Shown here: one piece after another, positions 1-63,420 of the stretch
Numbering within the stretch: the stretch's first letter is position 1
How the letters are laid out: every line of letters begins with the position of its first letter
Assembly (NCBI GenBank): GCA_977020255.1
Contig: CDROCS010004434.1
Span: 62,001 to 126,000 of the forward strand
DNA length: 64,000 bases
Reading direction: 5' to 3'
Origin: Obrimoposthia wandeli
Taxonomy: Eukaryota
Program-made: the position numbers and the translations under genes
Notes under the pieces: model-generated
The model's database searches: none
The model's input: the letters and a program-made list of their open reading frames with translations, nothing else
Told to the model about the DNA's origin: nothing

Positions 1-30
1 GAGAAGGAAAAGTTCAAGAGAGGCATCTTA

Positions 31-470
31 ATGATAAGATGGCCTAAAGTGAGCTACAGTGAAATTCCACAAGCAGAGGAAAAAGACAAAAAAGATAATT
101 CCAGAAGAATTCTGAAATCTAGGATATCCAATGAGAATCCCAATGCTCCACCACAAGTAGCAGTAACATTGAACGGAAGAGAATATCTTGCCGAAGTTGA
201 TACCGGATCAGCAGTATCAGTACTGAGTAACGAAATCTAGTACCAAAAAGAATTAAGAGAAGTCTGTCCTAGAAACCAGAAATTTGTAAAAGTGAATGGT
301 CCAGATGTAGTGTCGACAGGAAAACTGAAATGTCCATTGAATATAGATGGAAGAGCATTAAAGTTAAATGCTAGAATATTCACAGATTGCGGTAGTCCAG
401 TCCTGATTGGGATGGACGTAATACGAATGTTTGAAGGAATAATTATACTACCAAACAACAAGAATTATAA
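31..470 (+). pseudogene. Retroviral-type aspartic protease, copy 1 (one in-frame TAG at 238-240)
   Basis: LAEVDTGSAVSVLS active-site motif. ORFs 31..240 and 292..747 share a frame, continuing to the C-terminal motif VLIGMDVI. Confidence 0.85.
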
Positions 471-682
471 GAATGACAGTTCAGTGAGAGAGATGAAAAT
501 GTTGAGAGGACATATAGTCGAAAAGGAAAAATGCACTACGTTCCGTATGGGAAGTTCGTACCCAGACAAAAAACAGGAAAGCGCTAGCAAAGTCGATACT
601 TCACTACAAAAATGTAAATTTCGGACCACAAGATACGACGAGGAGAAAAATAACATATGTAAATCTGTCAGAAAGGGATCCC

Positions 683-1700
683 ATGAGATTCGAGAGAAAG
701 AGACGAAATATATTAGAACAGTACTATTCAAAAGGAATGGCACGTAAAATGGCAAGATCAGGTTTAGAAATGTTAAACGCGACAAGCAGTTATGGTCATG
801 AGGAAGTCGTACGATGCGTATGGTGTAGAGTAAAGTTTAGAGAATGGGAACAGAATGAAAACCCAATGAGACGTCATAAAAGAGATGCACCAAATTGTCC
901 ATTTCTTTTGAAACTGAAAACGTCAAACGTACCAGAAATCCAAACGGAAAAAGCACCCGATTTCGATTACAGTGACGGGATTCCAAAAGGAGAATCAGCT
1001 CTAATAACAGGTAGAGTAATAACGAATAGTCGAATTGAAGATATATTCGAAGTTATGCGAGAAGTGAACGAATGTGACGAACAGTATCGAGAAATAACTT
1101 TCGAAGACCCAAGACTTAAAAATTGGCAAAAAGGGACTTTTTGCTATAAAAAAGGATGGTAAAGACGTAATTAAATGCCACAAGTGTAAAAAGGAACGGA
1201 ATTATCGACAGATACACTCTTGAGCTACCTAACAAAATTTTACATCATGAATTTTGCGAATTTTGTACTTTTAAAAACAAAATAAAGCAAAAAGAACAGA
1301 AAACCGAATGTATAATCGAATACCAAATCACACGGAAAGAGATTTTGGCTCAACAAGACACACCGGTAGTGTCATTCGTGAGAAGATTATATCCAAAAGA
1401 AGCAGAAAGAATCAGAGAATTGGTAGAATTAAAAATAAAAACTACGCGAAACGGATACGGATCGATTTTTGAATTACTGCGAGATAAAGACGACAGTACA
1501 ATTGAAACAAAAGAGAAAGAGTACATAAATGAACTGGAATACGTACTAGAAGATCCGTGATGCGCAGTTTGTGGTCAACAAAATAGAAGTTGCCTTTCTA
1601 CCATGCGGACATGTAAGAACATGTCGGAGATGTGCGAATGAAATGGTATCATGTCCGATTTGTCGAAGAATAATAGATCGACAAGTGAGAAACATTAGAT
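683..1700 (+). pseudogene. Inhibitor-of-apoptosis (IAP) module inside Pol: BIR1, degenerate BIR2, C-terminal RING
   Basis: BIR1 CVWC-x16-H-x6-C has exact BIR zinc spacing. A second BIR-like DVIKCHKC...LHHEFC spans frameshifts at ~1150-1270. IAP-type RING reads CAVC.VNKIEVAFLPCGHVRTCRRCANEMVSCPICR at 1561-1670, after a TGA at 1558-1560 and a 1-nt frameshift. Confidence 0.88.
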
Positions 1701-2506
1701 TTCACTATCCAAATATAGGAAGTGGACGGACAGAGTGTAATAATTTGATAAATACAATATACCATATGGGAAATATAAATGGAGCACAGCGACCAGCAGC
1801 TATCATTAGAGTAAATAATTTAAGAGTAAAAGCCTTAATTGATACAGGTGCTGTAGCCTCGATAGTAAGTGAAGACTGTTTGACAGAAGAACAGAAACGA
1901 ACAATGGCAGAACCAGATGAATTCTTGGTATCGGTCAATGGAGACCCTGTTAAAGTGACGGGAATATTACCATGTACATTTATAATTGGACGTAATACGA
2001 TCACTATACCAGTTAGAATCATGAAAGAATGTCCTGAACCTACAATTTTGGGAATGGATGTATTATCACAACTCAAAGGGATAAGTATTGATTTACAAGA
2101 TCCAAGATTGAAGGATAGCACATCAAACAGACAAATAAACCAAATTGATGTAATTATAGAGAATCCTATAAAAATCGGTAAAAGATCGCAATTTCTCATT
2201 CAAGGTCACACATTATCAGAAGATAAAGGACCAGTTGTGTTCGAACCATCACGAGATTTCATAGAGAAATACGAATTACCAGTTGTGAGTACAGTATGCC
2301 TGATCGAAAACCACAAAATACCAGTTAGACTGATGAATACAACCAACAATGACATCCTATTATACAGAGGAATGAGGTTGGGAAAGATAGCACAGATGGA
2401 GAATTCCACTGTATGCGCTATGAAACTCGATAAAGATACGAATGATTACGAAGAAATAGTAATCCAATCAGAAAGACTGACAACTAGAAAAGAAACAATT
2501 ACTTGA
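1571..2506 (+). CDS. Pol fragment: IAP RING fused in frame to aspartic protease copy 2 and the pre-RT beta-rich linker
   Basis: One ORF contains the RING, ALIDTGAVASIVS, PTILGMDVL and the IPVRLMN...LYRGMRLG segment common between PR and RT in Gypsy elements. Confidence 0.85.
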   Translation: MVNKIEVAFLPCGHVRTCRRCANEMVSCPICRRIIDRQVRNIRFHYPNIGSGRTECNNLINTIYHMGNINGAQRPAAIIRVNNLRVKALIDTGAVASIVSEDCLTEEQKRTMAEPDEFLVSVNGDPVKVTGILPCTFIIGRNTITIPVRIMKECPEPTILGMDVLSQLKGISIDLQDPRLKDSTSNRQINQIDVIIENPIKIGKRSQFLIQGHTLSEDKGPVVFEPSRDFIEKYELPVVSTVCLIENHKIPVRLMNTTNNDILLYRGMRLGKIAQMENSTVCAMKLDKDTNDYEEIVIQSERLTTRKETIT

Positions 2507-2529
2507 TCTAATACATAAATTTCCGAAAG

Positions 2530-3980
2530 TAATTGCAAAAATCCATATGACATAGGAGAAACACCTGTCATAAAACATACAATACCACTGACAGAAGACA
2601 AAGTAGTCAGAAGAAGACCATATCGAGTACCATTACAGTTACAAGATGAAGTAAAAAGTCAGATAGAAGATATGTCTAAAACAGGAGTAATTAGACCGAG
2701 TTTTTCAACGCCATTCTCAGCACCTCTGTGGTGCTGGTGTGTAAAAAAGAAGGATGGGAAAATGAGATTCTGTATAGATTTCGAGAGAACTGAACAAGAT
2801 CACAAGAAAAGATGTGTATCCATTACCTAGAATCGAAGAGATGCTCGATAAATTGGGTAATTCAGATTATTTTACGACATTGATTTGCAGAGTGGATACT
2901 GGCAAATCGAGATAGAGGAGTGAAGAGGATAAACACAAACAGCCTTTTCCTGCGGAGATGGATTATACGAATGCGAAAAAAGATGCCATTCGGACTGACA
3001 GGAGCTCCAGCAACATTTTCACGTTGCATGAATTTTGGCCTCACTTGCATCAGTGTGCAAACACAGATGGTTTATATCGATGACATAATAATATTTTCGA
3101 AAACGTTCGAAGAACATTTAAAAAATCTTGAAGTTGTATTTAAAAGACTGGAAAACGCTAAATTAAAAAGTAAAACCTACAAAATGCGTAAGTGCTAAAG
3201 AGCGAGTAACATTTTTAGGACATATAGTATCGAAAGAAGGCATTCGACCTGATCCAGCAAAGATCGAGAAAGTAAAAGCGCATTTAGCACCAAAGACTGT
3301 TAAGGAGATACAGCAGTTTTTTAGGTCTTGCGAATTACTATAGACGATTTGTTGAACATTTTTCAGATATAGCAACACCATTGAGAAAGTTGACGAGAAA
3401 AGATGAGAAGTTCATATGGGGAGAAGAAGCCCAACAAGCGTTCGAGCATTTAAAAGAAAGACTGATAAAAGCACCAATATTAGCGTTTCCAGATATAAAC
3501 CGACAATTCATACTCATGACAGATGCAAGTAACTATGCTGTAGGAGCAGTATTGGGACAAGAGGATGACGAAGGAAGAGAACACGTCATCGCGTATGCGA
3601 GTAGAGGATTAAACAGAGCCGAAAAGAGGATACTCTGTTATCGAAAAGGAAATGTCTAGCCATAGTGTATTCATGTAGACAGTACAGACACTATTTGCTA
3701 GGACAAAAAGTATTCCGGCCTGTATACAGATCACAAACCACTACAGTTCTTGTATAAACATAGAGATGAGATGAGTAGATTAAACAGATGGTTTCTAAAA
3801 TTGGCCGAATTCGATCTAGAAATCCGTTATAGAACCGGAAAGTCGAATGGCAACGCAGATTGTTTATCGAGATTGACAAATGTAGACGAGAAAGGAAACA
3901 TAATTCCAGAAGAAGATAAAACCAATGACCAAAAAGGAGAAGCAAATCTACTGACGATTTTGCTAAAGACGGTAAAATAG
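2530..3980 (+). pseudogene. Reverse transcriptase and RNase H, frameshifted
   Basis: Motifs RRPYRVP, MPFGLTGAPATFSR, YIDDIIIFS, LMTDASNYAVGAVL and NADCLSR are spread over several frames. Confidence 0.92.
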
Positions 3981-4099
3981 ACAAAGAGATCATCAAAGAA
4001 CAGAAAAAGAAGATGAAGAACTGAGTCTAATCAAAGAATTGTTGGTGAAAGGAGATCTAAACGATGAAATGACGAAAAATACTCGATAAAAGAAGGAAT

Positions 4100-5300
4100 C
4101 TTGTATATTGTCAATAATGTCGGAAAGATAGTAGTAGTAATTCCGAAGTCATTGGAAAACAGCAGTGATGATCCAGTATCACGACGGAACACTAGGAGGT
4201 TTACATCTGTCAGGGCGAAAGACAATAGCCAGAATCAAAGAGAAGTACCATTGGGATGGTATGGAAGACGACATAAAACAATGGTGTAAACAATGTAAAG
4301 TATGTTTAACCAGAAAAGACACCGGAACTCGTACTAAAGTTCCGTTGAAACCAATGCCAGTTCCCTTGGCACCAATGGAATTCACAGCGATGGATATATT
4401 GGGACCATTGAGAGAATCAAGTAAAGGAAACAAGTATGTCATAGTATTTACGGATTACATGACGAGATGGGTAGAAGCATATCCCATGCAGAACCAGAAA
4501 GCTGAAACAATAGCGCAAATCTTAGTGGAAGAGATAATATTTCGATACGGAGTGCCTAGAAAGTTGTTAACGGATCAAGGTAAGAACTTCACTGGAGAAG
4601 TCATAAAAGCAGTATTGAAGATATCTGGAATTATGAAGTTACAAACTTCACCATATCATCCACAGACAGATGAATCGGTGGAAAGGTTTAATAAAACTTT
4701 ATGTATGATGGTGACAATCCTATTGCTCAGATAAGCAAGAGGATTGGATAAATATTTACCTTCATGTTTATATGCTTACAGGAATTAGTTCGAGAGGCGA
4801 CAGGTCACACACCATTCTATCTGATGTATCTCAGACAGAACAATATGCCAATGGATCTGGGACTGAGCCAACATCTCAGTACCTAGAAACTGAACAATAC
4901 ATTGTCGTCATGAAGGAAAGATTACAAGATGCTTGGACCAAAGCCGGATTGAAGTTGAAATTCAATCAAGAAGGTTACAAGGAACAATACGACAAAAAGC
5001 AAAACCGCATGAATTTAGAGCCGAGATCAAGTGATGATATTTTATCCAGTCATCGAACCAGGTCTATCGTTTAAACTTCATAGACCATATAAAGGACCAT
5101 ACAAGGTGATCCAGACAACCTCAACAAATTTGAAAGTAATCAACGAAGAGAATCGGAACAAGGAACCGATGATTGTACATGCAAATCGATGCAAATTAGT
5201 ACCAAATAAAGATAATGCGTCACGATATGAGTTAAGATCACAGAAATCGAAATCGAATACCAATACCATTAAACTTACACTATTAATGAATGGTAAGTGA
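4100..5300 (+). pseudogene. Gypsy integrase (HHCC zinc finger, DDE core, GPY/F tail), frameshifted
   Basis: HDGTLGGLH...CKQC, AMDILGP, LTDQGKNF, VERFNKTL and RPYKGPY are all present. Confidence 0.92.
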
Positions 5301-5354
5301 TCGGAACTACATAAACATGATGACGAGTGGTGGCGAAGAAAACCAGAGAACGGT

Positions 5355-8300
5355 ATGCTCAGAATGAAGTACCAAGAGGAAAAGGAAGTAATCCGACACA
5401 TCGCACCACAGGAGATATTAGAAGAAGACGAAGAGATAATAGTCGTTTTCGAAAAAACACAACCAACAGACGTAGCTAAAGAAGTCATTGTGAAAGATGC
5501 ACTAACAAACGAATTTCTGTGCGAACTTAGAGTGTCATACTACGACGGAAATACACTAGTCGCAGCACTTTATCAAAATTCCAATGTGTTTACGACTGAG
5601 AAAGTGATAATCGAAATCACATTGACACCAAACATAGTTGCATGGCAGAACTATGACAGTACTGAAGCAGGACTAGCCAGTCAGGAAGAGAAGGAACCGG
5701 CCGGTGGTCACATACTGCATGGTACACCAAAAAGACTCAAACAAGAATACCACGATGTAATAATGGTATTACGTAATTCACATGGGGAAAGAGATATCAT
5801 GAGAGTCCATTTAATCGACGCTGACACTGAAAAGATAATTTGTCAGATGGACACCAAATATTTTGATGGAAAGACAATTGTATGTTGTATACCAGAATCT
5901 CACCGGTTAGACACAGATCAAACGGAAGTATCTGTAAGGTTGAGCGTAATAGAAGGATTCCATTCGCCAACTTATCCGGAAGTGACTAACAATAAAATCA
6001 TCAAAGCAACGGCAGAGTTACGCATTGACAGCGGATACCGGAAGTGGGAAGCTAAAAATAAAAAGCCACAAAGAATCAATATGATCCGAGAACAAGTAAC
6101 AACTTCAAACCAGCCAAAATATCATGCTGAAATAGTATCATCCGCGCCAAGTGTAATTACATCGATAAACGACGAAATTATAATTTTACTAAAAAATCGA
6201 TGGCCGTCATCAACCGAGATACGAGTAAACTTAATTAATTATGCGAAGACACCGATATCTAAGCTGAATGTTACCTATTTTGATGGATTGTCCATCATGG
6301 GTAAATTGGAAACAATTGTCATGTGCTATGGAGCACAGTTCCAAGTTGAGATACTTAAAGATAGTGTAATACCGTATCCGATTCACAAATACGAAGGGGA
6401 AATCAACCCAATTATTCTAACCCCTTCATTAATTTCAGTTCAAACAGACATACCAGAATACCCTTCGAGCGAGTCTAGTGAAGACAGCGAACCGGAAAGT
6501 AACGATACAGAATCAACAGAATCCGAAGATAACATAATAGAGCGATTCGGAAGAACCATTGAGGTTGAATTCGCTAAAGAGAGCAGAAAAAGACAAAACA
6601 TAGAATTCGTGAAACAGAATATACAAGAAAGACGAATTAAATCTGCAGAAGAGACCGAGTCGGAAGAAGACTCAACAAAGAAACAAACATCAGAGACAAA
6701 GATGAATATCTCTCCAGCAATACGAATGCTGAGAGGAAAGAAATTGGCGAAACTATCCAACATCGACGAACAAATAGAGAAGAGATTAGAAAGACTAAAA
6801 CTTGAAGAGTCAGAATTAATGCCACCAATGAGTGAGATCATTCCAGGTAAGTTATACCTCGGAAATGTGGAGGATGCAACAGATGAAAAGAAACTGTTGG
6901 AACAAGGGATAACATATGTGATCAACGTTACAATGAATCACAAATCGCAATATCAGACGATCAGAGCTATGACATTAAGAGTAAAAGACTCAATGGACGC
7001 TAATCTTCTCGAATGGTTTGTAGAAACAAACGAAATACTTCACAGAGAACTCCGAAACCGAGGAAAAGTGTTAGTACATTGTCAGAAAGGAATTTCTCGA
7101 TCAGCAACCCTAGTATTAGCATATCTAATAAAGACTAGACGAATGCAGGTACTAGAAGCGTTAAAATACCTACAGGAGAGAAGAAGTATTGCAAACCCAA
7201 ATCTTAATTTTTTGGGACAGTTGGCAAATTACCAACTTCTGTTGCAAGAACAAAGACGGATGGACGACATTCCTGAGGATCCAAAGGAAAAGAATTTCCT
7301 CCAAGCATTATCATTGACCGGGTTATTTTTAGCCGGAGTCGATAAAATCACACAGATAATGCCAAAAGTATTTTTATGTCATCCAGGAGATATAGATACT
7401 GCTGGATTAAAGTTCCATAGTATCAACCGAGTAATCAACATTGTTGAAGTCGGAAACGAGATAATTAGTCTGTGTCAAAATACTGAAGATGACACCATTC
7501 GATACATACATGCTTCCAATCGAGAGATAAACGATGCACAACAACATCTGACGAAATTGACTCAAACCATCCAAGCTGAAGTCACAGAAGGAAACGGCGT
7601 TCTGATATATCAGAAAAAAGGTACAATGTTAGCGCCTACCATAGGTGTATCCTTGTTGGTAGAGTACCATGGTCATACGCCAGAAGAAGCGATGGTCTAC
7701 ATCAAACAGAATAGACCAAATACGGAATTCAAACCGTTACTCGTTCGAGAAATAGAGAAATACACCGAAAAGAGGAAACAACAACGAGAAACAAATGAAG
7801 CTACAACAACAGTGCCCAGCTTTCAATACCAAAGATTGCTAGCGATAGGCTTGTTAAGTTGTTTAATGCCGATAACGGGAGCACAGGAGATAGGCTCCAA
7901 CCACGGAAATAGTTCCTGGTTCAACGAAATCCACAATTACACCATAAAATACCATACACCGGCACTGATGATGTTATTAGTATTGTTAGGACTAATTGAT
8001 GTATGGATCATCCGAATATGTCTTCGATCTATGAGAACCGACAGTAAAAGATTTCAGTTTGTAAAGATGAAAAGACCAAATGGACCAACGAACAAAGTGC
8101 TTGTGTATCTAGACGAAAGGATCGAAGACAACATAGTAAATGAAGCGATATTTTACCCACAAAACAGAATACTGAATCAATTCCGAATAGATTACGAAGC
8201 TGACCGACAGCGCACACTTGACCGAATATCAACAACATTCGCCGGATGCAAGCGAAGAAAACGAGTTGTAAAGGAAATACAAAAAGATGCTGATACAAAA

Positions 8301-10496
8301 GGACCAACGTATATATTCGATGGCGATGTCATCAAAACACGTGAGTATGGAAGTAAGAGAGTGATAATTGAAACGATGGAAGGACATAGAACATGCTTGT
8401 CCGCAAAAAATGGATTCGGAAAGTTGACGATACAAGGTAAACCAGTACAGTTGATTATCGGACGAGATGGAATCGAGGAGATGTCAAAACAACGACAGAC
8501 AACAAAACGAACCAATCAGAAACAGATATCTCTCAAACGATTGATAATTAAAACCCTTTGCAAAAGGTCAGTCAAGGCTCTGTGCACCGTTGCACAAGGA
8601 TTGATCTATGGAGTAGTAATTGGATTGGTACTGCAAGCCATGCCAACCAGTAAAGCCGAATTGATGACACTATCCGAATATAATTTACATTTGAGAAATC
8701 TAGACAACACCCTAGAAATAATCAAGACATCCCACAGTAGAGCCGTGATGATCATGTGTGTAAAAGGATGTCCAGGACGAATGTGTATAGTCCCAGCGAC
8801 CGAAATGATAACACTTAATGGACATTATGGAGTTAGTGTTGTCACATGTGAAGACTACATATTTGGACAAACTAAAATAGTGCTTCTCAGTGACATGTCC
8901 AACCAAAGTGCACACAAATTTAGAATATTAACCATCAAGAGTAAAGGAATACCAGCAGTACGTTATGGTATTCTAGAATTGGTTAATCCAATACTGGCAC
9001 TGATCATTGGATTTATAATATTAATATTACTCATTTTGTTTTGTTGTTCAAAGATAGAGTCGAGATCAAAAAAGAAACGTCATGACCTCGCAAGACGAAC
9101 AGGTCAAATGAACTTACAAAAATTCAACACAATTATACCAAGACCACCATTTCTAGATGAACCAGCACCAGAGTACCAGCCAACGATATATGAACATATT
9201 GAGGAAAGACCGTACTATATGAGTAATTTGACTTGTTTCATTGAAGTTCCTGAGTTTAGGAATCGAACGATCATAGGAATCATGCTGATCGTACAAATCA
9301 CCACTACCAAGGCTAGTTATGAGATCATGATCAGTAAATGGAGACAAGACGTAATACGGGCAATATACATAGAAATTCCCTTACTAAAAACAAATCACGT
9401 AGTAGACATTCATCTACAGACGTCAGCAACTGACAATATCGATCAGAAATTGTATGTCATCCGACAGGTCAGAATAAAAATCCACCAAAATACACCCGTT
9501 TACAATTTAATATTATTGTATCATGAAAGAGTGTTATACCTACGGATAACAATATCAAAGAGGAAGCGGATTATCCAAAGTATCCGAACAAAGTCATTAA
9601 TATTACCTAGAGATGAGCGCATCTGGAAAATTGTCGACAGGATTATGATCACAGGTAGACGACGTAAAGCCGTATGGAATTCCGTTAGGATATTTTTCAG
9701 ATTGCTAGAAACTGACAGCGTGACAGTAATGAGTCCCAACCCAGATGGCGTAATCAGATTCGAAATCCAAAGCCAAATGTTAGTACCACATTTTAACACA
9801 GAATGTCTGTGTAATCGAATTGCCAGTAATTCTACAGAGACCTCGACCATAATCATGATAATAACAGGTGAAATATTCTACATAACTCTAAGATACCAGA
9901 ACCGTCGATTTCGTAGATACGGTATAAGTATCAAACCCAGGAAAATCATTCCCAGAAGACCAATCCTAGTCAAAAAGAAGGCAAAGGTAATCGAAAGTAA
10001 ACGCCATTCCAAAAAACCGACAGTGATCAGAACAAAGACAGAAGCGAAAGAAAAAGAGCTAAATCCCAGAAACCAAAGTACAATTATTAAGAAGACAAGA
10101 GTGAGGGGAACGATCCCACTAGATCCCAAACATCATTTCCAATCCAAAATAATAATACCTGTTCCATCAGAAACAAAACACCCAAATCCCCGAATTTTTA
10201 GAAAATCGGACATAATACATGGAAACCGATCAAAACCCATGGAAATGTCATTCGAACCAACAAACAACAAAATGAAGTATGATTATAAATCATCAGACAG
10301 CGGAATAACAGCGGTCAATGCCCTAATTGGAATGGCCGTAGTGTCAACAGCAGTGGTTTTATTGACAATCGTGCGTAAAAGGCAGTCACCAGTATGCCCA
10401 GGAATACGACGAAAATGCGAAGGATTGCGATGCTGTGACACACCCATCATGGAGGAAGTGGAATTAGACTTACCTCCGCCTCCCATCAAGATATGA
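5355..10496 (+). CDS. 1713-aa cargo polyprotein: three beta-rich repeats, dual-specificity phosphatase, pseudo-phosphatase, serial signal-peptide/TM (env-like) region
   Basis: Uninterrupted ORF. DUSP fold at ~6828-7245 (LYLGN, VHCQKGISRSATLVLAYL, NPNLNFLGQL). Second DUSP-like copy at ~7345-7770 lacks the catalytic Cys (LIYQKKGTMLA). Hydrophobic segments at ~7830-7885, 7960-8025, 8570-8660, 8990-9050, 9265-9315 and 10310-10375. Confidence 0.85.
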   Translation: MLRMKYQEEKEVIRHIAPQEILEEDEEIIVVFEKTQPTDVAKEVIVKDALTNEFLCELRVSYYDGNTLVAALYQNSNVFTTEKVIIEITLTPNIVAWQNYDSTEAGLASQEEKEPAGGHILHGTPKRLKQEYHDVIMVLRNSHGERDIMRVHLIDADTEKIICQMDTKYFDGKTIVCCIPESHRLDTDQTEVSVRLSVIEGFHSPTYPEVTNNKIIKATAELRIDSGYRKWEAKNKKPQRINMIREQVTTSNQPKYHAEIVSSAPSVITSINDEIIILLKNRWPSSTEIRVNLINYAKTPISKLNVTYFDGLSIMGKLETIVMCYGAQFQVEILKDSVIPYPIHKYEGEINPIILTPSLISVQTDIPEYPSSESSEDSEPESNDTESTESEDNIIERFGRTIEVEFAKESRKRQNIEFVKQNIQERRIKSAEETESEEDSTKKQTSETKMNISPAIRMLRGKKLAKLSNIDEQIEKRLERLKLEESELMPPMSEIIPGKLYLGNVEDATDEKKLLEQGITYVINVTMNHKSQYQTIRAMTLRVKDSMDANLLEWFVETNEILHRELRNRGKVLVHCQKGISRSATLVLAYLIKTRRMQVLEALKYLQERRSIANPNLNFLGQLANYQLLLQEQRRMDDIPEDPKEKNFLQALSLTGLFLAGVDKITQIMPKVFLCHPGDIDTAGLKFHSINRVINIVEVGNEIISLCQNTEDDTIRYIHASNREINDAQQHLTKLTQTIQAEVTEGNGVLIYQKKGTMLAPTIGVSLLVEYHGHTPEEAMVYIKQNRPNTEFKPLLVREIEKYTEKRKQQRETNEATTTVPSFQYQRLLAIGLLSCLMPITGAQEIGSNHGNSSWFNEIHNYTIKYHTPALMMLLVLLGLIDVWIIRICLRSMRTDSKRFQFVKMKRPNGPTNKVLVYLDERIEDNIVNEAIFYPQNRILNQFRIDYEADRQRTLDRISTTFAGCKRRKRVVKEIQKDADTKGPTYIFDGDVIKTREYGSKRVIIETMEGHRTCLSAKNGFGKLTIQGKPVQLIIGRDGIEEMSKQRQTTKRTNQKQISLKRLIIKTLCKRSVKALCTVAQGLIYGVVIGLVLQAMPTSKAELMTLSEYNLHLRNLDNTLEIIKTSHSRAVMIMCVKGCPGRMCIVPATEMITLNGHYGVSVVTCEDYIFGQTKIVLLSDMSNQSAHKFRILTIKSKGIPAVRYGILELVNPILALIIGFIILILLILFCCSKIESRSKKKRHDLARRTGQMNLQKFNTIIPRPPFLDEPAPEYQPTIYEHIEERPYYMSNLTCFIEVPEFRNRTIIGIMLIVQITTTKASYEIMISKWRQDVIRAIYIEIPLLKTNHVVDIHLQTSATDNIDQKLYVIRQVRIKIHQNTPVYNLILLYHERVLYLRITISKRKRIIQSIRTKSLILPRDERIWKIVDRIMITGRRRKAVWNSVRIFFRLLETDSVTVMSPNPDGVIRFEIQSQMLVPHFNTECLCNRIASNSTETSTIIMIITGEIFYITLRYQNRRFRRYGISIKPRKIIPRRPILVKKKAKVIESKRHSKKPTVIRTKTEAKEKELNPRNQSTIIKKTRVRGTIPLDPKHHFQSKIIIPVPSETKHPNPRIFRKSDIIHGNRSKPMEMSFEPTNNKMKYDYKSSDSGITAVNALIGMAVVSTAVVLLTIVRKRQSPVCPGIRRKCEGLRCCDTPIMEEVELDLPPPPIKI

Positions 10497-10620
10497 TGAG
10501 TCAGGAGGAGGTTGTAGATAAATTAGTGTGTGAAATATGTAGAAATATCTAGAAGCGATTGTACAAATAGTAGAAGTATATAAAACTCATGTAGAAATTA
10601 ATCATCATCATGTATTTAGA

Positions 10621-10920
10621 ATGGCCGAAGAATGCCCAATATGTTTGGAAGATCTAACCGAACGAAGAACAAGACCCGAAACCTGCAACCATTTACACCA
10701 CGAGGAATGTTTATCGACATGGATCAGAACTTATGGACAGTTCGGACACCCAACATACCCTCGTTGCCCTGTATGCAGAAGACAATTCGCAAGATTCGTC
10801 ATGTTAGAACCCAACCAAGAGGATGTATATGTACAGGTGGTATTCTGTTGGAAGAATTTCGGAGAGTGTTGGTGTTATTACTGTTTGTCAGATCGACAAA
10901 ATCAGACCACTTTTGTGTAA
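10621..10920 (+). CDS. Small RING-H2 putative E3 ligase, copy 1, with C-terminal CWK..CWCxxC motif
   Basis: CPIC...CNHLHHEEC...W...CPVC pattern. TATATAAAA at ~10577 and TTTAG immediately 5' of the ATG. Confidence 0.8.
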   Translation: MAEECPICLEDLTERRTRPETCNHLHHEECLSTWIRTYGQFGHPTYPRCPVCRRQFARFVMLEPNQEDVYVQVVFCWKNFGECWCYYCLSDRQNQTTFV

Positions 10921-10980
10921 ACATCACACAACCACCAGTCCTCAATCGAGCCCAAATTCAACATCAACCCTCCCACAGTA

Positions 10981-11310
10981 ATGTCTGGAGAATGTTCCAT
11001 CTGCTACGAGAGCATCGTGGACTTCTACACCAAGCCCAACAACTGCGACCACCTTTTCCACGTCGAATGCCTCGAGACGTGGATCCCCATCGCAAACAGC
11101 AACAATCCCCTCGACTTCCCAACCTGCCCGATGTGCAGAGCGACTCTTCTCAGTACACTACGTGTACAACCAAGACAGCCTCCAAGCAGTGGTACCCATC
11201 GTACACTGCTGGAAAACCATCTGCGATTGCTGGTGCTCGTTCTGCGTGGAGGAGCGAAGCACAGGCCAGCCCAATCCCCAACAATAATCGAAGGTAACTT
11301 TCTGACTTGA
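10981..11310 (+). CDS. Small RING-H2 putative E3 ligase, copy 2; C-terminal Cys motif is frameshifted
   Basis: CSIC...CDHLFHVEC...W...CPMC pattern. An alternative frame at ~11190-11260 reads VVPIVHCWKTICDCWCSFC, matching the copy-1 tail. Confidence 0.78.
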   Translation: MSGECSICYESIVDFYTKPNNCDHLFHVECLETWIPIANSNNPLDFPTCPMCRATLLSTLRVQPRQPPSSGTHRTLLENHLRLLVLVLRGGAKHRPAQSPTIIEGNFLT

Positions 11311-11627
11311 ACGTGACATCATGAACTACCCTGTGTATCGCATACCGCGATAAATTAGCTACCATAATTGTAATCATAATTATATAATCTTGTGAACTGT
11401 AAATTGACCATTACCATTTTTATGTATGATGTTTAACTGAAATTGTAATTATTATACTGAATTTCTAAAAAAGACAATTTTTATGCTTAGTGTGAATGCG
11501 TAAACATGCCTAAAATCTAAACAAAACTCGGTAGGATTAGATAACTAAGGATTCATTTTGAAATAAAATTTAAATTAACGATGAGAACGGTGAACCCCAA
11601 ATTGAAAGGAGTTATTTTCTCATGCAG

Positions 11628-12112
11628 ATGAAGTGCGCTGTATGCATGGAGAAAATTTGGGCGGTATCAGCATCCCCTGTCGGCTGCCGCCACAAATTTC
11701 ACGAATCCTGCCTATATACTTGGGCCCGACTTCGACCCGAAGGACATGTCAATTTTTGCCTTTCGCGGAATGGACACTACAGTGTCGAGGGCGCCACAAG
11801 GGCACCCATTCGCTCACCAGCTGTATTGGTGGCGAGCACTGCCATTGCCCCGACTGTATCGCACGCCGTCGCGATGCAAAACTCGCCCTCCGCGAGAAAT
11901 ACCGGTCAACTCGCGACCCCCGCTCATGGCAGCGTGGCCGTCAAATATGGCTCGGAAATCGCGGAATACACGGGCGATATACTACCATTTTCCACCCGAG
12001 TCAACACCTCACCATGCGCCAGCAAATGTTACTATACAATGGCGGCCCACCATCGTATCCGGAACTACCACTGGAGCAGGTCTTGCTGTTCCTGAAGGAC
12101 AGGAACGGTTGA
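11628..12112 (+). pseudogene. RING-H2 protein, copy 3, frameshifted
   Basis: MKCAVCMEK...GCRHKFHESCLYTW, then a frameshift near 11755 into the frame with HCHCPDC that ends at 12112. Confidence 0.7.
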
Positions 12113-12692
12113 CAGATCTCAAACATTCTTGTGACATATCCCAGACAATCTTGTGACATATCCCACACCCTCAATAATTTTGTGTGTAAATTTTTAGTTG
12201 TGTATAAATAATAATGTATGGTTTGAGACTTGCTCCAAATTATATATTATGTTTCCCACTAAAAACCGGAATTTTGGAAAATTTTTTTTTGGGCATGTTT
12301 GTTGAAGTTGAATGATTGATTTTGTAGGGATGAACCTAAAATCAACAGCCAAAGGCTTATTTAAGTAAAATCGATACGTTCCGGGGACGTAACTTTTTTG
12401 GAACCCCCGAGGTATGTTAAGGTCGAGAAATAAGAAAATTAAATATTTTAGTCGATTAAATACTAAAATAAAAATCCTTGAAAGCAAGGTTGAAAATTAA
12501 ATTAAAATATTAATTTTAGTTTTAAAAATTAAAATTAGTGGAATTTAGGGTAAAAATTAGGAGGACCACGAAGGTCGTGTATAATGTGAAAATGTATAAA
12601 AGTTTAAAGTTAATTAACCAAAAGGACAAAAATTAATTAAGGAGAAAATCAGACAATTAAGAATTAATTCAGAAAAGAGAAGTTAATTAAAC

Positions 12693-13006
12693 ACGTCAAT
12701 CAAGGATCCAAAGGTAAGCACATTTTCGTGCAGTAAAAAACTAAAATCTTATTTTGCAGCCGTCATTGATTGACAGGAGATACCAGTTCTCCTACTTCCA
12801 CAATTGTTCTTATTTTGCAGCCGTCATTGATTGACAAGAGATACTAGTTCTCCTACTTCCACAGTTGTCAGCCGTCAATTGATTGACGTCCAGTGCCTCT
12901 ATATAAGGCAGTATCTAGAAACCCACAATCACAACTACAAGTCGACTGGAAAAAAAGAAGAAGCAAGTAGACAGAAGACAATCCCCTCGACCACGAATCG
13001 GTAAGT
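12693..13006 (+). promoter_or_regulatory. LTR promoter: four TGATTGAC motifs, TATA box, ATG-less leader and splice donor
   Basis: TGATTGAC at 12767, 12828 and 12880, inverted at 12693-12702. TATATAA at 12900. G|GTAAGT at 13000/13001. Confidence 0.6.
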
Positions 13007-13050
13007 GGTGATTTGGGACAGAGGTAAAATTAAAATTATTTAGATTGCTG

Positions 13051-13600
13051 AAAAAGTGAACCAATATTCGAGAACCAATAGTTTGAAATATCATTGACCA
13101 ATATTTGAAATATAAAAAGTGAACCAATATTCGAGAACCAATAATTGAAATATCATTGACCAATATTTGAAATATAAAAAGTGAACCAATATTCGAGAAC
13201 CAATAGTTTGAAATATCATTGACCAATATTTGAAATATAAAAAGTGAACCAATATTCGAGAACCAATAATTGAAATATCATTGACCAATATTTGAAATAT
13301 AAAAAGTGAACCAATATTCGAGAACCAATAGTTTGAAATATCATTGACCAATATTTGAAATATAAAAAGTGAACCAATATTCGAGAACCAATAATTGAAA
13401 TATCATTGACCAATATTTGAAATATAAAAAGTGAACCAATATTCGAGAACCAATAGTTGAAATATCATTGACCAATATTTGAAATATAAAAAGTGAACCA
13501 ATATTCGAGAACCAATAATTGAAATATCATTGACCAATATTTGAAATATAAAGTGAACCAATATTCGAGAACCAATAGTTGAAATATCATTGACCAATAA
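13051..13600 (+). repeat. Tandem array of ~9 copies of a 62/63-bp unit, each with three CCAAT motifs
   Basis: Anchor GTGAACC at 13056, 13119, 13181, 13244, 13306, 13369, 13431, 13493 and 13553. Confidence 0.95.
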
Positions 13601-13763
13601 CGCGAAAGAAGTCGAAAGTCACAGTGACTTTGAGGACGATTCCGCCAGACTTACAATTTATCTCTGGAAAGAAGACGATCCCACAAGTTCGTCAAAACCA
13701 CCTACGGACCCTACATCGGACAGCATACTAGTCGCAGCGTATTGGTAAGCCAACCGACTAGAG

Positions 13764-14200
13764 CATTCATTGCCCCTAGTTGGCAATTAGGATACTGTCA
13801 TTACCCCTTGTTGGTAATTCTACATTTTAAATTAATACACAAATTCATTGCCCCTAGCTGGCAATTAGGACAACTCGACTCTTTAACACAATCATTGCCC
13901 CTAGTTGGTAATTAAGATCGGACATTTATTCATTGTCCCCAGCGACAATTAGGAATCCTACCCAGACGTTTTACCTGTAAGATTCATTGTCCCTAGCTGA
14001 CAATTAGGTTCATTCATTGCCCCTAGTTGGCAATTCGGATAAATACTCATTGTCCCTAGTAGACAATTCGGTAAGACTCATTGTCCCTAGCTGACAATTC
14101 GGTTCGTTCATTGTCCGTAGTTGACAATTAGGAGTAAGTTTTCATTGTCATCTTGACAATTAGTTTTTTAGGAGATCCATTGTCACAGTAGACAATTCGG
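13764..14200 (+). repeat. Array of 12 short inverted repeats, ATTRYC-N5-7-GRYAAT, with variable spacers
   Basis: Arm variants ATTGCC/GGCAAT, ATTGTC/GACAAT and ATTACC/GGTAAT all keep pairing. Loop is mostly CCTAGYW. Confidence 0.9.
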
Positions 14201-14794
14201 GTCAAACACACACAGATAGAGTTAAGGAACAAAGAAACATTTAGCTAGAGATAAGAAGTAGGAGCGAAGAAATTTAAGAGAGTTGCGTTATAGATTAACC
14301 AACCTGAGTAAGAAGACTAAACCTAAGAAACTTAATCACCTGAACGTAAAATCGATACGTGGTTCATCCCCACTTCTTGTAGAGACTTACAGAAGTCCTT
14401 TAGGAATTTTATCATACTTTTTAGAAATACGTACATAAACGTATTGTTGTGTTAGTTACGTGAATTACGAATAAACAATTTCCTACATTAGAACAAGTTG
14501 TTTTTACACTCTTCAGACTAAGAGACATCAAATCAAATACCTTCAGATAGTACAAGAGATTAGGCAACCATAACACTAAGTAGGCCACGACCAACTTTAA
14601 GACCTGCTTCTAATCGAACTCACGTTGGGGCCCTCCGCATTCAAGAGGCTCTATACCAAGTTTCGTATAGAAACCCCAACAAAATGAATGAATGACGCAG
14701 AATAAATGACGTTATGGAGAGTCGATAAATACACATCCGTGGACACATTCATAGAAACATGTTCTATTATTGTATACATATTTATTAATTAAAC

Positions 14795-58855: not shown

Positions 58856-60013
58856 TTATACGTTGTCTACAATAAAACATTCATCGGAGTCGGAGTCGGA
58901 GTCTGTTATCTCACTTGGGATACTCAACAAATCGTTTAGACGAAATTCCTCCACCAGTCTATCTCTACGTTTTTCAAAAACTCGCTTGATATTCTTGGTA
59001 TCCTCTAAACATGTGTGAATCTTCTTCTGTGTTTCTTCTCCAAAATATTTTGATATCATTGTCTTTAATCCTATTTTTGGATGGTTATGGCCAAGTTCTG
59101 TTCTTATTTCAGTTGATGCACCCAGGTCCACGATTCTAGCAAAATGTTGTTTTTCTAGTCTTAATACTTTCAAATCATTTTCTAATCCTGCACCTATCAA
59201 AACATTTCCTACTAATATTGATTGTGCTTTTTCAATGACTTCCTCTGCATCAGTTTTTCCTGTCAAAGATTTTTCGGTGAAACCAGTTATAAACTTAACA
59301 TAATTTCGTATTCTTTCTCTTGGCGTTACTATTTCATGTAATACAATCTGATCTTTTTCATCTATGATTGTAATGCTAGCCAATGTTTGTTTTTTGTCTA
59401 CCGTGATGGCCATTTCGCAATCCATGAAATATTTAATTGGAGTTTTTGATATATTTGCATTTTCTAAAAACATTATTTTATTCGTTTTCCAGATTAACTC
59501 TATAAAAAATGTATTTCTTCTGGGACTAAATTTTAGGAGATATTCGCTTCTTAATTCTTTTTTATCAATGGTATAAGAATGATTTTGTAAAAACATGTTA
59601 CTTAATTTCTTTTCTTGTTTACTCATTAAATGGGCTCTTCCTTCTGCCACATGAATTTCTATTTCTTCTACGTCTTGTAAATCTCCTACTAATTCTGATA
59701 AATTTATTCTTACATTTTTGGTGTGGTGCATAGTAAAAATTACACTTTTTCTGCTAGTCTTTGTAATTTTTAATTTATTAGGAATATGCGTTTGGTCTTG
59801 GAATATCTGTTTTCCTTCTCCATTTTTAAAATATCTATTGCTATACTGTCTTAATCTTCTATATAGGAATTTCGCAAAAATGTTCATTGTTGGAGTGCAT
59901 AATGGTTCTTCCTCTAAACTATTGGTAAGGTCTACGACTGATGGTGAAAAATCGTCCAAACAACTTTCCCCTACAACTCGGATCCATTTCCGTTTGTTTG
60001 TTGAGAACTCCAT
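58856..60013 (-). CDS. DEDDh 3'-5' exonuclease (REX4/ISG20-like) with unknown N-terminal domain
   Basis: ExoI FMDCEM, ITGFT, ExoII IGAGLENDLKVL and ExoIII HTCLEDT. Intact 385-aa ORF. Confidence 0.85.
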   Translation of the reverse strand: MEFSTNKRKWIRVVGESCLDDFSPSVVDLTNSLEEEPLCTPTMNIFAKFLYRRLRQYSNRYFKNGEGKQIFQDQTHIPNKLKITKTSRKSVIFTMHHTKNVRINLSELVGDLQDVEEIEIHVAEGRAHLMSKQEKKLSNMFLQNHSYTIDKKELRSEYLLKFSPRRNTFFIELIWKTNKIMFLENANISKTPIKYFMDCEMAITVDKKQTLASITIIDEKDQIVLHEIVTPRERIRNYVKFITGFTEKSLTGKTDAEEVIEKAQSILVGNVLIGAGLENDLKVLRLEKQHFARIVDLGASTEIRTELGHNHPKIGLKTMISKYFGEETQKKIHTCLEDTKNIKRVFEKRRDRLVEEFRLNDLLSIPSEITDSDSDSDECFIVDNV

Positions 60014-60179
60014 CTGTTACATAATTCAGTCGGAGTAAAAATAGAATAATGAAAAAATAAATAATAAAGAAAAATTTTCATGCAATTGTAGAATATGTAG
60101 TCCTAATTTTTGTACAACAGATTTATTATATATTGATCAAGTTATCATTCTGGCCAAATTAGCCCAATTCGGATTCATT

Positions 60180-60524
60180 TCAGGAATCATGTCCATAAAT
60201 AAAGTTTCGATTCCTGTTGGGAATAATGAGTCTGTCCATTAAATGTTGGGTCTGTGACTGCAGAGCTAAAATTACTCTCCGTTGAGAACTGATTCTATGA
60301 TAAAGATCATCAATTTTATGTGAATCAGATTTGATTATTTGTTCAAATTCATTCATTTCGATATTTTTACTGAGATTTTCTTCCACCAATCTTTTAATAT
60401 TCGATTTCAGTTTGTCATTTTGTTTTATCGTTTTTATAAAATAATCATCATGATGTTGTTTAATGTCTTGGATTTTTCTTTTTAATTTATGGCATTGACT
60501 GCAGACTTGAAATTTTTTGTTCAT
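60180..60524 (-). CDS. Small coiled-coil accessory protein with N-terminal CxxC
   Basis: CSQC followed by heptad-like L/I periodicity. Acceptor-like TAATTTAG lies 2 nt before the ATG. Confidence 0.5.
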   Translation of the reverse strand: MNKKFQVCSQCHKLKRKIQDIKQHHDDYFIKTIKQNDKLKSNIKRLVEENLSKNIEMNEFEQIIKSDSHKIDDLYHRISSQRRVILALQSQTQHLMDRLIIPNRNRNFIYGHDS

Positions 60525-60695
60525 TTCTAAATTATAGTTAATATATATTGTCGGGTCTTTATCCCGATATTTGGTTTTTTCTAAATTAAGTTTTTTACAC
60601 TTTTACAAATATCTATACACACATACATACTCATCCTCATCTAATATTTATTTGAATATTCTGTTTTAATTAACTCATAAAAATAATATATCTGT

Positions 60696-62228
60696 TTATT
60701 GTCTATTGATTTCGACAACTGTATTCATTGATACGTTTGATGAATTTAAAGAACTTGGTATTATTGATGTTATAAATGGTCCTGGAGGTTTATAAAATCT
60801 AATTTGACGAGTTGGCTTTGAATTTTTCTGATGTTTTCTCATTTTTATTTTCCATAATATTTTTATGGCAAGTATCAATATTTCAATTATTACTGTTGCC
60901 ATTATGATTTCTATTTCCCTTTTATGGTGTGAGTATTTTTGTTTATTATTATACATTTTATAGCTTGAATTTGTGGATTTGTACGATATAATTTTTGTTG
61001 TTTTTAAAATAAATTTAATTTTTTTAATTTTTATGGTTCCAATCTGACCTGTAGTTTTATAAGCTTCTGTTGTGAATTTTTTTATATGTAATATCTGTTT
61101 TGTACTTATTTCTTTGGTATATTTGTCAACTTTAATTACTGACCAATGACCACAATAAATTGTAGGTTGATATAATTTGGATATCTTATTTCCTAAAATT
61201 GTTAACTTTGTTAGGTTTTTAATAGTTTCAAACTGTTGCCCCCATTGTCTATACATTAATGGTTTGTTAGTGACTACGCATTCTCTATTATTCATGATTA
61301 ATTTGTTCGGATATCTAATATTTTTTATGGTTAAATTTGTTTTAGTTTGGGCTCTTTCCAATTGTTTTTCTGTATCTTTCCAAAAATGTGAATTTGGTCC
61401 TCTATATCTAATTCTTATGACTGCCTTATCCAAATCATCTATTTCAAGTTGAATTTTCCATTTTATCATGATACTGTATTTGGTTATATGTTTTGCCATT
61501 GTCTTCAAGACTGATGCCAAGTACATATGAGTTTCTATAATTCTTTCATAAAGTATTTAATTTGTTAAATTTGATGTAACTCTTATTTGGTATTGTGTTT
61601 CTGTTCTTAAAAATGGTATTGTGTATTTTTGTGATTTTATTCCGGAAATAATTATGTTTTGCCTTCTGTCTGTTTGTGTGATTTGTATATTTCCTGTTTT
61701 GTTTGTAAAAAGTGAAATTTTTAATTTTATTGATGTGATTTTAGGTATTATTGTAATTAAACCGAAATATTTTATTAGATGTGTTGTTGAGTCGTATTTA
61801 TTTACTAATTTATTATCATTTATGTCTGTTGTACTTACTTTATGTAAATTGTTATTTGTTATATAATATATTATAAGTAATATCATTATTTTTATGATTT
61901 CTTTTATCGATATTTTTATTGTATTTTTTATCTGATGATTTTTATTAATCTTATTTTGTTTCTGTGAGTTTTTTATTGTTAACATTTGTAAAACAGTATT
62001 ATCGTTAGTTGATCTCAGATTATATCTATGACTTTTTACTTTTGTATTTTCCTCAGGTACTTGACGACATCTATTTATATGTGCTCTTATTTCTTTTGAT
62101 CTAGGGTCATTGTCAAGTTTAGCGGTTATGTTAGTTCCGTTGGTACTAATGACTGTGTATGGTCCTTTGTATGGTTTTGATAGTTTGTGTGACAGACCTA
62201 CGCTGATTTGTGGATTGTGAATCATCAC
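60696..62228 (-). CDS. Integrase C-terminal tail extended into an env-like accessory region; one in-frame TAA at 61557-61559
   Basis: ORFs 61557..62228 and 60696..61526 share a frame, linked by ILYERIIETH. Hydrophobic segments IIKIMILLIIYYI and IIMATVIIEILILAIKILW. Confidence 0.6.
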
Positions 62229-63420
62229 TTTACTTCCATTTTTATGTTTGATGGTTTAGTTCTTCTATCATAGTATTCTTTGTAGTTTTCTTGTATGTTT
62301 TTTACAAATAATTTGGCTTTTTCAAAAGCTAGTTTTATTCTCTCTCTAATTTCTATTTTGTATTCTGGTATTTCTAAGTATTGAGTGGTGGGTTGTAATA
62401 ATGTTAAATCAATAGGCATCTGTGGGTCTCTGAGGAACATAAGGTAAAAAGGTGTTTCTCCTGTTGATGCATGTACTGATGTTCTATATGCAAAAAGGCA
62501 TGGAGGTATGTGTAAATCCCAATCTGTTTGGTTGTTGTTAGTGTATGATGCCATCATATCTTCGAGGGTTCTATTAAATCGTTCCACTAATCCATCAGTT
62601 TGAGGGTGATATGGTGTTGTGTTAATCTTTTTTATATGAAATATTTCAGCTATAGATGCTACCACATTATTTATGAATTCAGGACCTTTGTCAGTTAAAA
62701 ACTTTCGGGGTGCACCGAAAGTAAAAATTATTTTTTCGACTAAAACCTTCGCGATGGTTTCAGCCTTGTGATCTTGTGTTGGGAAAGCCTCTGGTGTTTT
62801 TGTAAAATAGTCGGAAAATACTATTATGTAGCGATTTCCTCGGGGTGTTTCAGGTAATGGTCCCATTACATCCATGGAAACGATTTCCATGGGGGCTGAT
62901 GGATAAGGTATTGGTTTTAAAGGAACTTTAGTGGTACGTAACGTGTTTTTTCATTTAAGGCATATTTTGCATGTTTTGCACCAATTTTTTACATCTTCTT
63001 TCATGTCGATCCAATAATATTTTAAGTTTAACCTTGAAAATGTCTTTTTTGATGATAAATGTCCACCTAGTGCTCCATTATGATATTGAAGGAGTAGTTG
63101 ACATTGTATGTCTTTCGGGATTACTAGTGAGTATAAATTTTTATCGTTTAAATAATATAATATTTCATTACTATATTTATATCGTGTTTCGTGAATTTTT
63201 AAGTGTTTCCTTAATTTTTCATCTGTTGGAATTTCGTCTATGCTGATGTATTTAGCTACCTGTTGGATTTCAGTATCTTTACTTTGAAGTTCTGTAATTA
63301 CTTTTTCGTCGTATCTAGCTTTTATTATTGTAAAAAGATTAGATGCTGAATCGTCAGTATTTAACATATTTATATCATCTCTTATTCTAGATAAGCAATC
63401 TGCATTTGCATTCGATTTTC
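62225..63420 (-). pseudogene. Integrase zinc finger and DDE core of element 2, frameshifted
   Basis: ORFs 62951..63367 and 62225..62890 carry the HHCC and D-D-E motifs. Confidence 0.92.

Follow-up and report, generated by a model that had tools for sequence, protein, structure and literature searches.

A giant Ty3/gypsy retrotransposon of Obrimoposthia wandeli with phosphatase and membrane-protein cargo in frame behind its integrase, across a stop codon that is probably a lesion

In a 64,000-nucleotide stretch of Obrimoposthia wandeli DNA (assembly GCA_977020255.1, contig CDROCS010004434.1, positions 62,001 to 126,000, forward strand; hereafter the window), bases 1 to ~11,800 form the 3′ part of one A-rich element (11–12 kb), element 1, whose 5′ half precedes window position 1. 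An intact open reading frame (ORF) of 1713 amino acids (5355..10496, +) follows the integrase of this element and is separated from it by a single TGA. Our analysis suggests that this ORF is the C-terminal cargo half of a giant Ty3/gypsy long terminal repeat (LTR) retrotransposon polyprotein, and that in this lineage the pol frame continues past the integrase into captured host-type domains. The TGA itself is probably a lesion of this copy within the polyprotein, either a nonsense mutation or a consensus error, which carries no recoding signal.

The C-terminal tail of the integrase (5031..5297, +) comprises a GPY/F domain (Pfam Integrase_p58_C, 2.7e-4), an RYELRS motif at 5223-5240 and 19 further codons, and was also placed by alignment with 12 relatives and with a second element of the same clade in the window (element 2; 58856..63418, minus strand). 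The TGA that follows (5298..5300, +) is the sole stop of the integrase-tail frame between 5019 and 10493. Beyond it, the frame is open over 5301-10496 (1731 codons; log10 P of about −53 for an open frame of this length at the base composition of this DNA), and the ATG at 5355 lies 18 codons downstream of the stop. The initial annotation of this DNA had given the same stop, 18 sense codons, same-frame ATG and 1713-residue product, with coordinates and motifs that were all correct, while being silent on three tandem repeats (residues 10-350) and on the broken pol upstream, both found here. Its proposal of an ancestral giant polyprotein was supported: in 12 of the 13 nearest relatives by integrase the frame goes on past this position, and element 1 nests among them.

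These relatives were identified in an integrase-core search among longer proteins, in which the best 120 of 192 matches were compared: 13 proteins are 57–67% identical to the integrase core, followed by a gap to 49% or less for the 107 others. In a FastTree phylogeny (46 sequences, midpoint root), the 13 relatives and elements 1 and 2 form one clade with a support of 0.997. The frame runs on past the tail motif for 126–1137 amino acids without a stop in 12 of the relatives, while the 13th ends before the tail, and more than 300 amino acids follow the integrase core in 12/13 relatives versus 11/107 other matches. This in-frame continuation indicates that an integrase-cargo polyprotein is the normal build of the clade. 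At the junction, an RYxLR-type motif is common to 10 of the 12 relatives, after which the continuations are unrelated to one another; mostly they consist of a signal-like segment, repeats and a transmembrane (TM) segment, with extra protease domains in four of the 12 (P0005, P0006, P0012 and P0013) and ankyrins in one (P0006). In P0010, a module of signal, FN3-like repeat and TM segment (residues 40–200) stands upstream of the protease, so that the membrane cassette can lie before pol as well as after it.

The conservation of the TGA, which the initial annotation had proposed as a check, was not found: a stop at this site occurs in none of the 12 relatives and not in element 2. The DNA of one relative (L001, encoding P0001) holds one frame over 4.65 kb that is open at the integrase-cargo junction, with two lone stops elsewhere, one in the reverse transcriptase (RT) and one mid-repeat. 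Although filed in a bacterial metagenome-assembled genome, L001 (1-4655) represents a retrotransposon of this clade and is evidently contaminating eukaryotic DNA; L002-L018, from such genomes as well, hold other gypsy integrases.

The repeat in the relatives' continuations was recovered in 20 copies from 8 of the 12 proteins with an iterated profile. An eight-row profile gave 18 PDB matches (best E 0.012), 13 of them in chains that we take to be FN3-bearing from their protein names (sevenless, CD45, titin, fibronectin), and Pfam fn3 matched one of the eight members (E 0.024). On a segment of element 2 the profile beat 60/60 shuffles, although this was one of 11 segments tried. The layout of the membrane cargo is common to element 1 and its relatives, a likeness that does not imply homology.

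Several observations weigh against the cargo-polyprotein interpretation and against a lesion of one copy. Copies of the same family lay outside the comparison, and with relatives only 57–67% identical the stop could be fixed in the family. The TGA stands at the usual end of pol, not at a random place in 1,820 clean codons; the donor-like site over it shares its phase with 6438, the acceptor-like site that scores best in the element; and an in-frame, stop-free gap of 18 codons has a ~9% chance anyway. Database searches with the 1713-aa ORF found no relatives of it, the cargo domains of element 1 had no detectable homologue in the clade relatives, and the relatives' repeat profile did not rise above shuffles on the ectodomains of element 1. 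In addition, the protease cleavage sites and every cargo function are inferred, and signal-peptidase cleavage rests on a post-hoc heuristic that misses most signal-like segments of the relatives.

The first group of these points suits an alternative that we regard as rather unlikely, in which the fusion is ancestral, the stop has become fixed in the family, pol ends at the integrase and the cargo is made separately. The cargo would then be reached from ATG 5355 (by reinitiation or from a sub-genomic RNA) and/or by splicing, either from 5293 to 6438, which would take out the stop together with the repeats and join the integrase in phase to the half with the dual-specificity phosphatase (DUSP), or from a leader to 6438 with a start at ATG 6702. 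The position of the stop, 19 codons beyond the tail motif where usual pols end, is in line with such an arrangement, as is a cargo that is clean though pol is dead. The donor-like G|GTAAGT pointed out in the initial annotation is indeed present (GT at 5293), overlaps the stop and ranks among the 6 best of 541 GT sites. It is in phase with an acceptor-like site (6417..6438, +) that combines a branch-point-like CTAAC, a pyrimidine tract and CAG, is the best of 925 AGs and is followed by the in-frame ATG 6702 as the next ATG; its score was matched in 27/1000 synonymous shuffles upstream of the DUSP. This score is post-hoc, however, and was reached in 103/1000 shuffles ORF-wide, the ATG-free stretch 6439-6701 is unremarkable (931/2000 shuffles), and the splice from 5293 to 6438 would throw away 360 intact repeat codons. 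GTAAGT is, moreover, commonplace (4 in 11.3 kb versus 3.7 expected) and absent from L001.

Splicing as such seems to be used by these elements, and splicing of gypsy ORF3 has been described (PMC5408684, in the text available). A YAG lies at most 2 nt from the ATG in 5/5 separate accessory ORFs (three RING, one coiled-coil-like and one DEDD exonuclease ORF; 10619-11630, +, and 60527-60013, −) versus 33/366 other ATGs (p 9e-6), which argues for spliced expression, with these sites as probable alternative splice acceptors. In element 1, the ATG of RING-H2 ORF 1 (10621..10920, +; Pfam zf-RING_2 5.3e-10) stands directly behind an acceptor-like TAG, that of its paralogue, RING-H2 ORF 2 (10981..11310, +; 5.9e-9), behind an acceptor-like CAG, and that of a third RING ORF (start at 11628..11760, +; 5.8e-5, a match limited to the first half of the finger) directly behind a CAG. 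ATG 5355, by contrast, has no acceptor-like YAG beside it and is preceded by two out-of-frame ATGs 35–38 nt upstream, which speaks against separate expression of the cargo. A perfect CAG|GTAAGT donor is found just once in the element, at 6844-6852 (+) where the DUSP domain starts, and coincidence with the coding of Pro-Gly-Lys may explain it.

Read-through had been the other proposal of the initial annotation. A programmed form of it at the TGA, yielding a minority integrase-cargo fusion as in murine leukaemia virus (MLV) gag-pol and SIRE1 pol-env, appears very improbable. The shared frame and the open 18-codon linker would suit it, and the 200 nt after the stop fold somewhat better than shuffles (z −2.2, in one of five windows tried), but the 80- and 120-nt windows gave z values of −0.8 and −0.9, so that no stable structure was found within 120 nt. 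Rfam returned no match across window positions 1-16000, and TGA-TCG is not known as a leaky stop context. The lack of a stop at this place in the 12 relatives and element 2 also argues against recoding, and the lone stops in clade copies are scattered over unrelated places and of mixed type (TGA, TAA, TAG).

Element 2 had been cited in the initial annotation as also carrying a single in-frame stop after its integrase extension. This stop is real (TAA, 61559-61557, −), but it lies ~150 codons past the integrase tail and inside a predicted ectodomain, which is not an equivalent site, and it is not single, as another (TGA, 62953-62951) lies inside the integrase together with one frameshift. The in-frame tail of element 2 carries a signal-like segment, with a TM segment near 60908-60852 and ORFs at 60524 and 60013 (−), the latter (58856-60013, −) being intact and encoding 385 aa with a DEDD-type exonuclease domain (RNase_T 1.4e-6). 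Element 2 is cut at its 5′ side (63470-63418, −), behind a G-rich tract and a 20-mer (TGT...ACA) that resembles the end remnant of another LTR element.

A lesion peculiar to this copy, our preferred reading of the TGA, accords with the state of the DNA upstream. Element 1 has the Ty3/gypsy order of protease, RT, RNase H and integrase. A first aspartic-protease-like domain (DTG; 139..441, +), detected by tblastn searches that used relative P0004 and the second protease of the element as queries, is interrupted by a TAG (238-240), and a BIR (inhibitor of apoptosis) domain (734..907, +; Pfam BIR 5.7e-11) lies in a frameshifted block. The C-terminal part of an inhibitor-of-apoptosis (IAP)-type RING finger (1577..1681, +; Pfam zf-C3HC4_3 1.7e-9) is followed by the second aspartic protease (DTG; 1787..2080, +; Pfam gag-asp_proteas 1.8e-8, RVP 5.7e-7), which has no breaks and sits in a clean 318-codon frame (1550-2506). 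Duplicated aspartic-protease domains, which in element 1 flank the BIR-RING, are common in the clade (P0004, P0005, P0006, P0012 and P0013), either before the RT or after the integrase. The RT–RNase H–integrase region (2450..5030, +; Pfam Integrase_H2C2, rve) contains 19–21 frameshifts and 2–3 in-frame stops, as counted by frameshift-aware alignment to three relatives; its integrase comprises Zn finger, core and GPY/F tail and groups with gypsy integrases. The last pol frameshift lies near 5000, and at the damage density of pol a further stop within 330 nt has a 21–30% chance. The TGA may accordingly be the last of many lesions in a damaged 5′ block.

Against ~20 breaks in 2.85 kb of pol, none was seen in 5.19 kb of cargo, a count that compensated frameshift pairs in unmatched parts would escape. 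Uniform damage predicts ~36 breaks in the cargo ORF (P about 1e-16 for none). We consider it reasonably likely that this contrast reflects consensus error in a conserved multi-copy region, toward which the indel-heavy damage and a substitution load within the relatives' range both lean: stops and frameshifts stand at 2–3:19–21 in element 1 versus 6:3 in element 2, a third gypsy element of the window and L001 together (p 0.002–0.007), and 7.3% of invariant columns are changed in the pol of element 1, inside the relatives' range of 0.4–9.7%. Breaks at runs of five or more (4/21, p 0.007) are expected of errors and of real indels alike. Alternatively, pol has truly decayed while selection kept the cargo as a host-domesticated or non-autonomous cassette, which we hold to be possible but doubtful. 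The break-free cargo, so improbable under uniform damage, and the clean host eIF3d gene of the window would fit such selection, and there is a precedent in an IAP borne by the planarian element Burro1, which is said to protect planarian stem cells (as cited in the available part of PMC13465017). The excess of indels, the unexceptional change of invariant columns and the preference of the breaks for runs, which errors share, tell against it.

The cargo ORF begins with three tandem all-beta repeats of ~95 aa (5382..6404, +; at 5382-5654, 5703-5999 and 6117-6404), whose pairwise scores were reached by 0/1000 shuffles for any pair. An IPT/TIG identity is a lead only (Atlas TIG 0.87), and Pfam, PDB profile and fold searches gave no confirmation of it. 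An acidic linker separates the repeats from a DUSP domain (6852..7235, +; Pfam DSPc 1e-40) in which the HCxxGxSRS loop (HCQKGISRS), the general acid (Asp545) and the AYL motif are all present, and whose best PDB match is DUSP10/MKP5 (2.2e-24). The domain is apparently an active mitogen-activated protein kinase (MAPK)-type phosphatase. It is followed by a pseudo-phosphatase (7371..7757, +; Pfam DSPc 5.6e-7; PDB DUSP match 5.7e-4), the P-loop of which (YQKKGTML) has neither the catalytic Cys nor the Arg. Both DUSP copies had already been recognized in the initial annotation, in agreement with the Pfam matches.

Six hydrophobic segments, alternately short and long, occupy the remainder of the ORF; the short ones end in small-x-Ala sites, and a TM segment, with 5–6 Lys/Arg after it, comes downstream of every signal-like site. 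Membrane module 1 (7836..8024, +) consists of a signal-like segment ending ITGA, a 28-aa lumenal piece with two N-glycosylation sequons and a TM segment at 7968-8024. Module 2 (8601..9047, +) comprises a signal-like segment ending SKA, a 111-aa ectodomain with 4 Cys and a TM segment at 8991-9047, and its tail carries TIYEHI (TxYxxI), which we take to be an ITSM. Module 3 (9267..10370, +), the weakest of the three, has a signal-like segment ending TKA, a 333-aa segment with 2 Cys, of which the last 143 aa are 27% Lys plus Arg, and a TM segment at 10314-10370. The cytosolic segments between the modules measure 192 and 73 aa. The three signal-peptide-like segments named in the initial annotation were recovered exactly (residues 843, 1101 and 1320) by a signal-peptide heuristic, one devised once the sites were known; at least three sites were obtained in 10/500 block shuffles, and the 107 other gypsy polyproteins gave 0.07 per 1000 aa. 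The suggested internal signal/anchor processing hence stands as a topology, both here and in the relatives, while cleavage itself is a prediction of this post-hoc heuristic.

The description of these modules as envelope-like was not supported in the fusogen sense. Judged against the ectodomain sizes and many conserved disulphides of known fusogens, the predicted ectodomains (28, 111 and 333 aa with 0, 4 and 2 Cys) are too small or Cys-poor, and those of the relatives resemble FN3; a receptor-like nature is likelier. That the modules instead represent an RNA-virus-derived envelope for attachment and fusion, which would make the element an infectious retrovirus-like agent, is a question separate from that of the stop and strikes us as quite improbable. 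The alternating signal/anchor layout would be expected of such an envelope, and the look-alikes of module 2 in Atlas are phlebovirus G2 clusters, but their score of 0.79 is within the chance range, one third of shuffled proteins reaching 0.8. The modules have no Pfam or PDB match, the ectodomains fall short of F-, gB- or class II fusogens, and the relatives' ectodomains are FN3-like. Burro offers some precedent with its in-frame env-like region (PMC6431247, available text).

The following route can be proposed for the giant polyprotein. The aspartic proteases of the element would free the integrase and the cytosolic modules (repeats, DUSP and pseudo-DUSP), while the internal signals would thread the remainder into the endoplasmic reticulum, where host signal peptidase may cut it into three receptor-like type-I membrane proteins. 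The small 3′ RING-ligase ORFs would be expressed from spliced RNAs. Together, the cargo (IAP, RING, phosphatase with its dead partner, and surface proteins) would most likely dampen apoptosis as well as the stress or immune signalling of the host cell, with the BIR-RING acting on apoptosis, the DUSP, perhaps tuned by its dead copy, on stress-kinase signalling, and the surface proteins, among them module 2 with TIYEHI in its tail, on signalling at the surface.

The window is rich in AT and holds, besides several transposon remnants, an eIF3d gene that contains an intron, a content that points to an animal host. The eIF3d host gene (51921-53709, +) is intact, with one 70-nt intron and a divergent sequence. 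Tandem arrays (61, 62/125 and 30 nt) occupy 12747-14149, where a TATA-like site is seen near 12900 and GGTAAGT, resembling a donor, near 13000. They may be part of a long 3′ LTR or of a neighbouring element, and a similar array of 33–37 nt lies at 17665-17982. The third gypsy element (45700-51300, +) is unrelated and decayed; it contains an internal duplication, and 3 stops and 2 frameshifts interrupt 1.35 kb of its RT–RNase H. A 330-codon ORF at 22911-23903 (−), in which a BED/Spin-doc zinc finger is weakly matched (E 9e-4), is probably a DNA-transposon remnant.

The interest of this locus lies in the integrase-cargo clade and its phosphatase/membrane kit, and the TGA is probably its least interesting part. 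Among the means by which large DNA viruses control their hosts are IAPs, DUSPs and ankyrin proteins. In a speculative extension, which we hold to be rather unlikely as a whole, an undescribed giant Ty3/gypsy clade would use the integrase end as a cargo bay, from which its own, often duplicated, proteases and host signal peptidase release a comparable kit of IAP, RING ligases, MAPK-type phosphatase and pseudophosphatase, IPT-like repeats, perhaps decoys for Rel/NFAT factors, and receptor mimics of FN3 type whose tails bear tyrosine motifs; its persistence here after pol died would amount to host domestication. Burro set the precedent of a retrotransposon carrying host-regulating domains, one of them reported to help the host. 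Our comparison widens it to a whole clade extending pol past the integrase into swappable cargo, which here includes a MAPK-type phosphatase that is apparently active, a pseudophosphatase and three membrane modules of the signal/anchor kind. These findings suggest that cell-surface and stress-kinase signalling are within the reach of retrotransposons, and that receptor mimics may be among the ORFs named "env-like" solely for their TM and signal motifs.

Among known systems, the first DUSP resembles the MAP kinase phosphatases (DUSP10/MKP5, DUSP1/4), which provide its best PDB matches and share the full DUSP signature, and the second copy resembles the STYX-type pseudophosphatases in having no catalytic Cys. 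Unlike in those proteins, active and dead copies stand in tandem inside a transposon polyprotein, and no Pfam family for the N-terminal rhodanese-like or kinase-docking domain of classical MAP kinase phosphatases was found in the ORF (E up to 0.05). In flavi-, alpha- and bunyavirus structural polyproteins, internal signals and anchors alternate in an arrangement that lends itself to cleavage by signal peptidase; the analogy is one of topology only, as no sequence homology was found and cytosolic segments of 192 and 73 aa intervene here. As in errantiviruses and other env-carrying Ty3/gypsy elements, a membrane-protein coding region adjoins pol, whereas their F- or gB-type fusogen is a separate ORF and the modules here are small, Cys-poor and unmatched (PMC13524379, available part). 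The bdelloid elements Juno, Vesta and TelKA share 3′ accessory ORFs (ORF3), including DEDD exonucleases as in element 2, small TM proteins and ORF3 expression from spliced messages, but theirs are short separate units, in contrast to the 1,700 aa of cargo in the pol frame here (PMC5408684, as far as available).

No gypsy or LTR element with DUSP or FN3 cargo was found in the literature covered, although subscription journals, Repbase reports and supplements, which lay outside it, may describe the clade; the accessible parts of PMC8532177, PMC13238120 and PMC6338049 contain nothing on such cargo. The closest counterpart is planarian Burro/GYPSM1, with a polyprotein of 4,873–5,140 aa that includes BIR, RING, BCL2-like, ankyrin and env-like parts (PMC6431247, in the text available, as for the following points). 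Neither name occurs among the best 120 of 192 integrase matches, and the likeness is drawn from the published description, not from Burro sequences. In contrast to element 1 with its DUSPs, that text has no occurrence of "phosphatase" and names no FN3-like or signal/anchor modules after the integrase, no tandem proteases and no 3′ RING cassettes, and it places the env-like region of Burro between gag and pol. Burro is further characterized by a single ORF and an internal region above 20 kb, the window holding 11–12 kb of element 1, with a broken pol. Nevertheless, element 1 appears to work like Burro: both have a giant polyprotein with accessory domains around protease, RT, RNase H and integrase, BIR and RING within it and ankyrin in the clade (relative P0006 here), accessory ORFs either separate or inside the polyprotein, and long tandem repeats outside the coding region (here 13051-14149).

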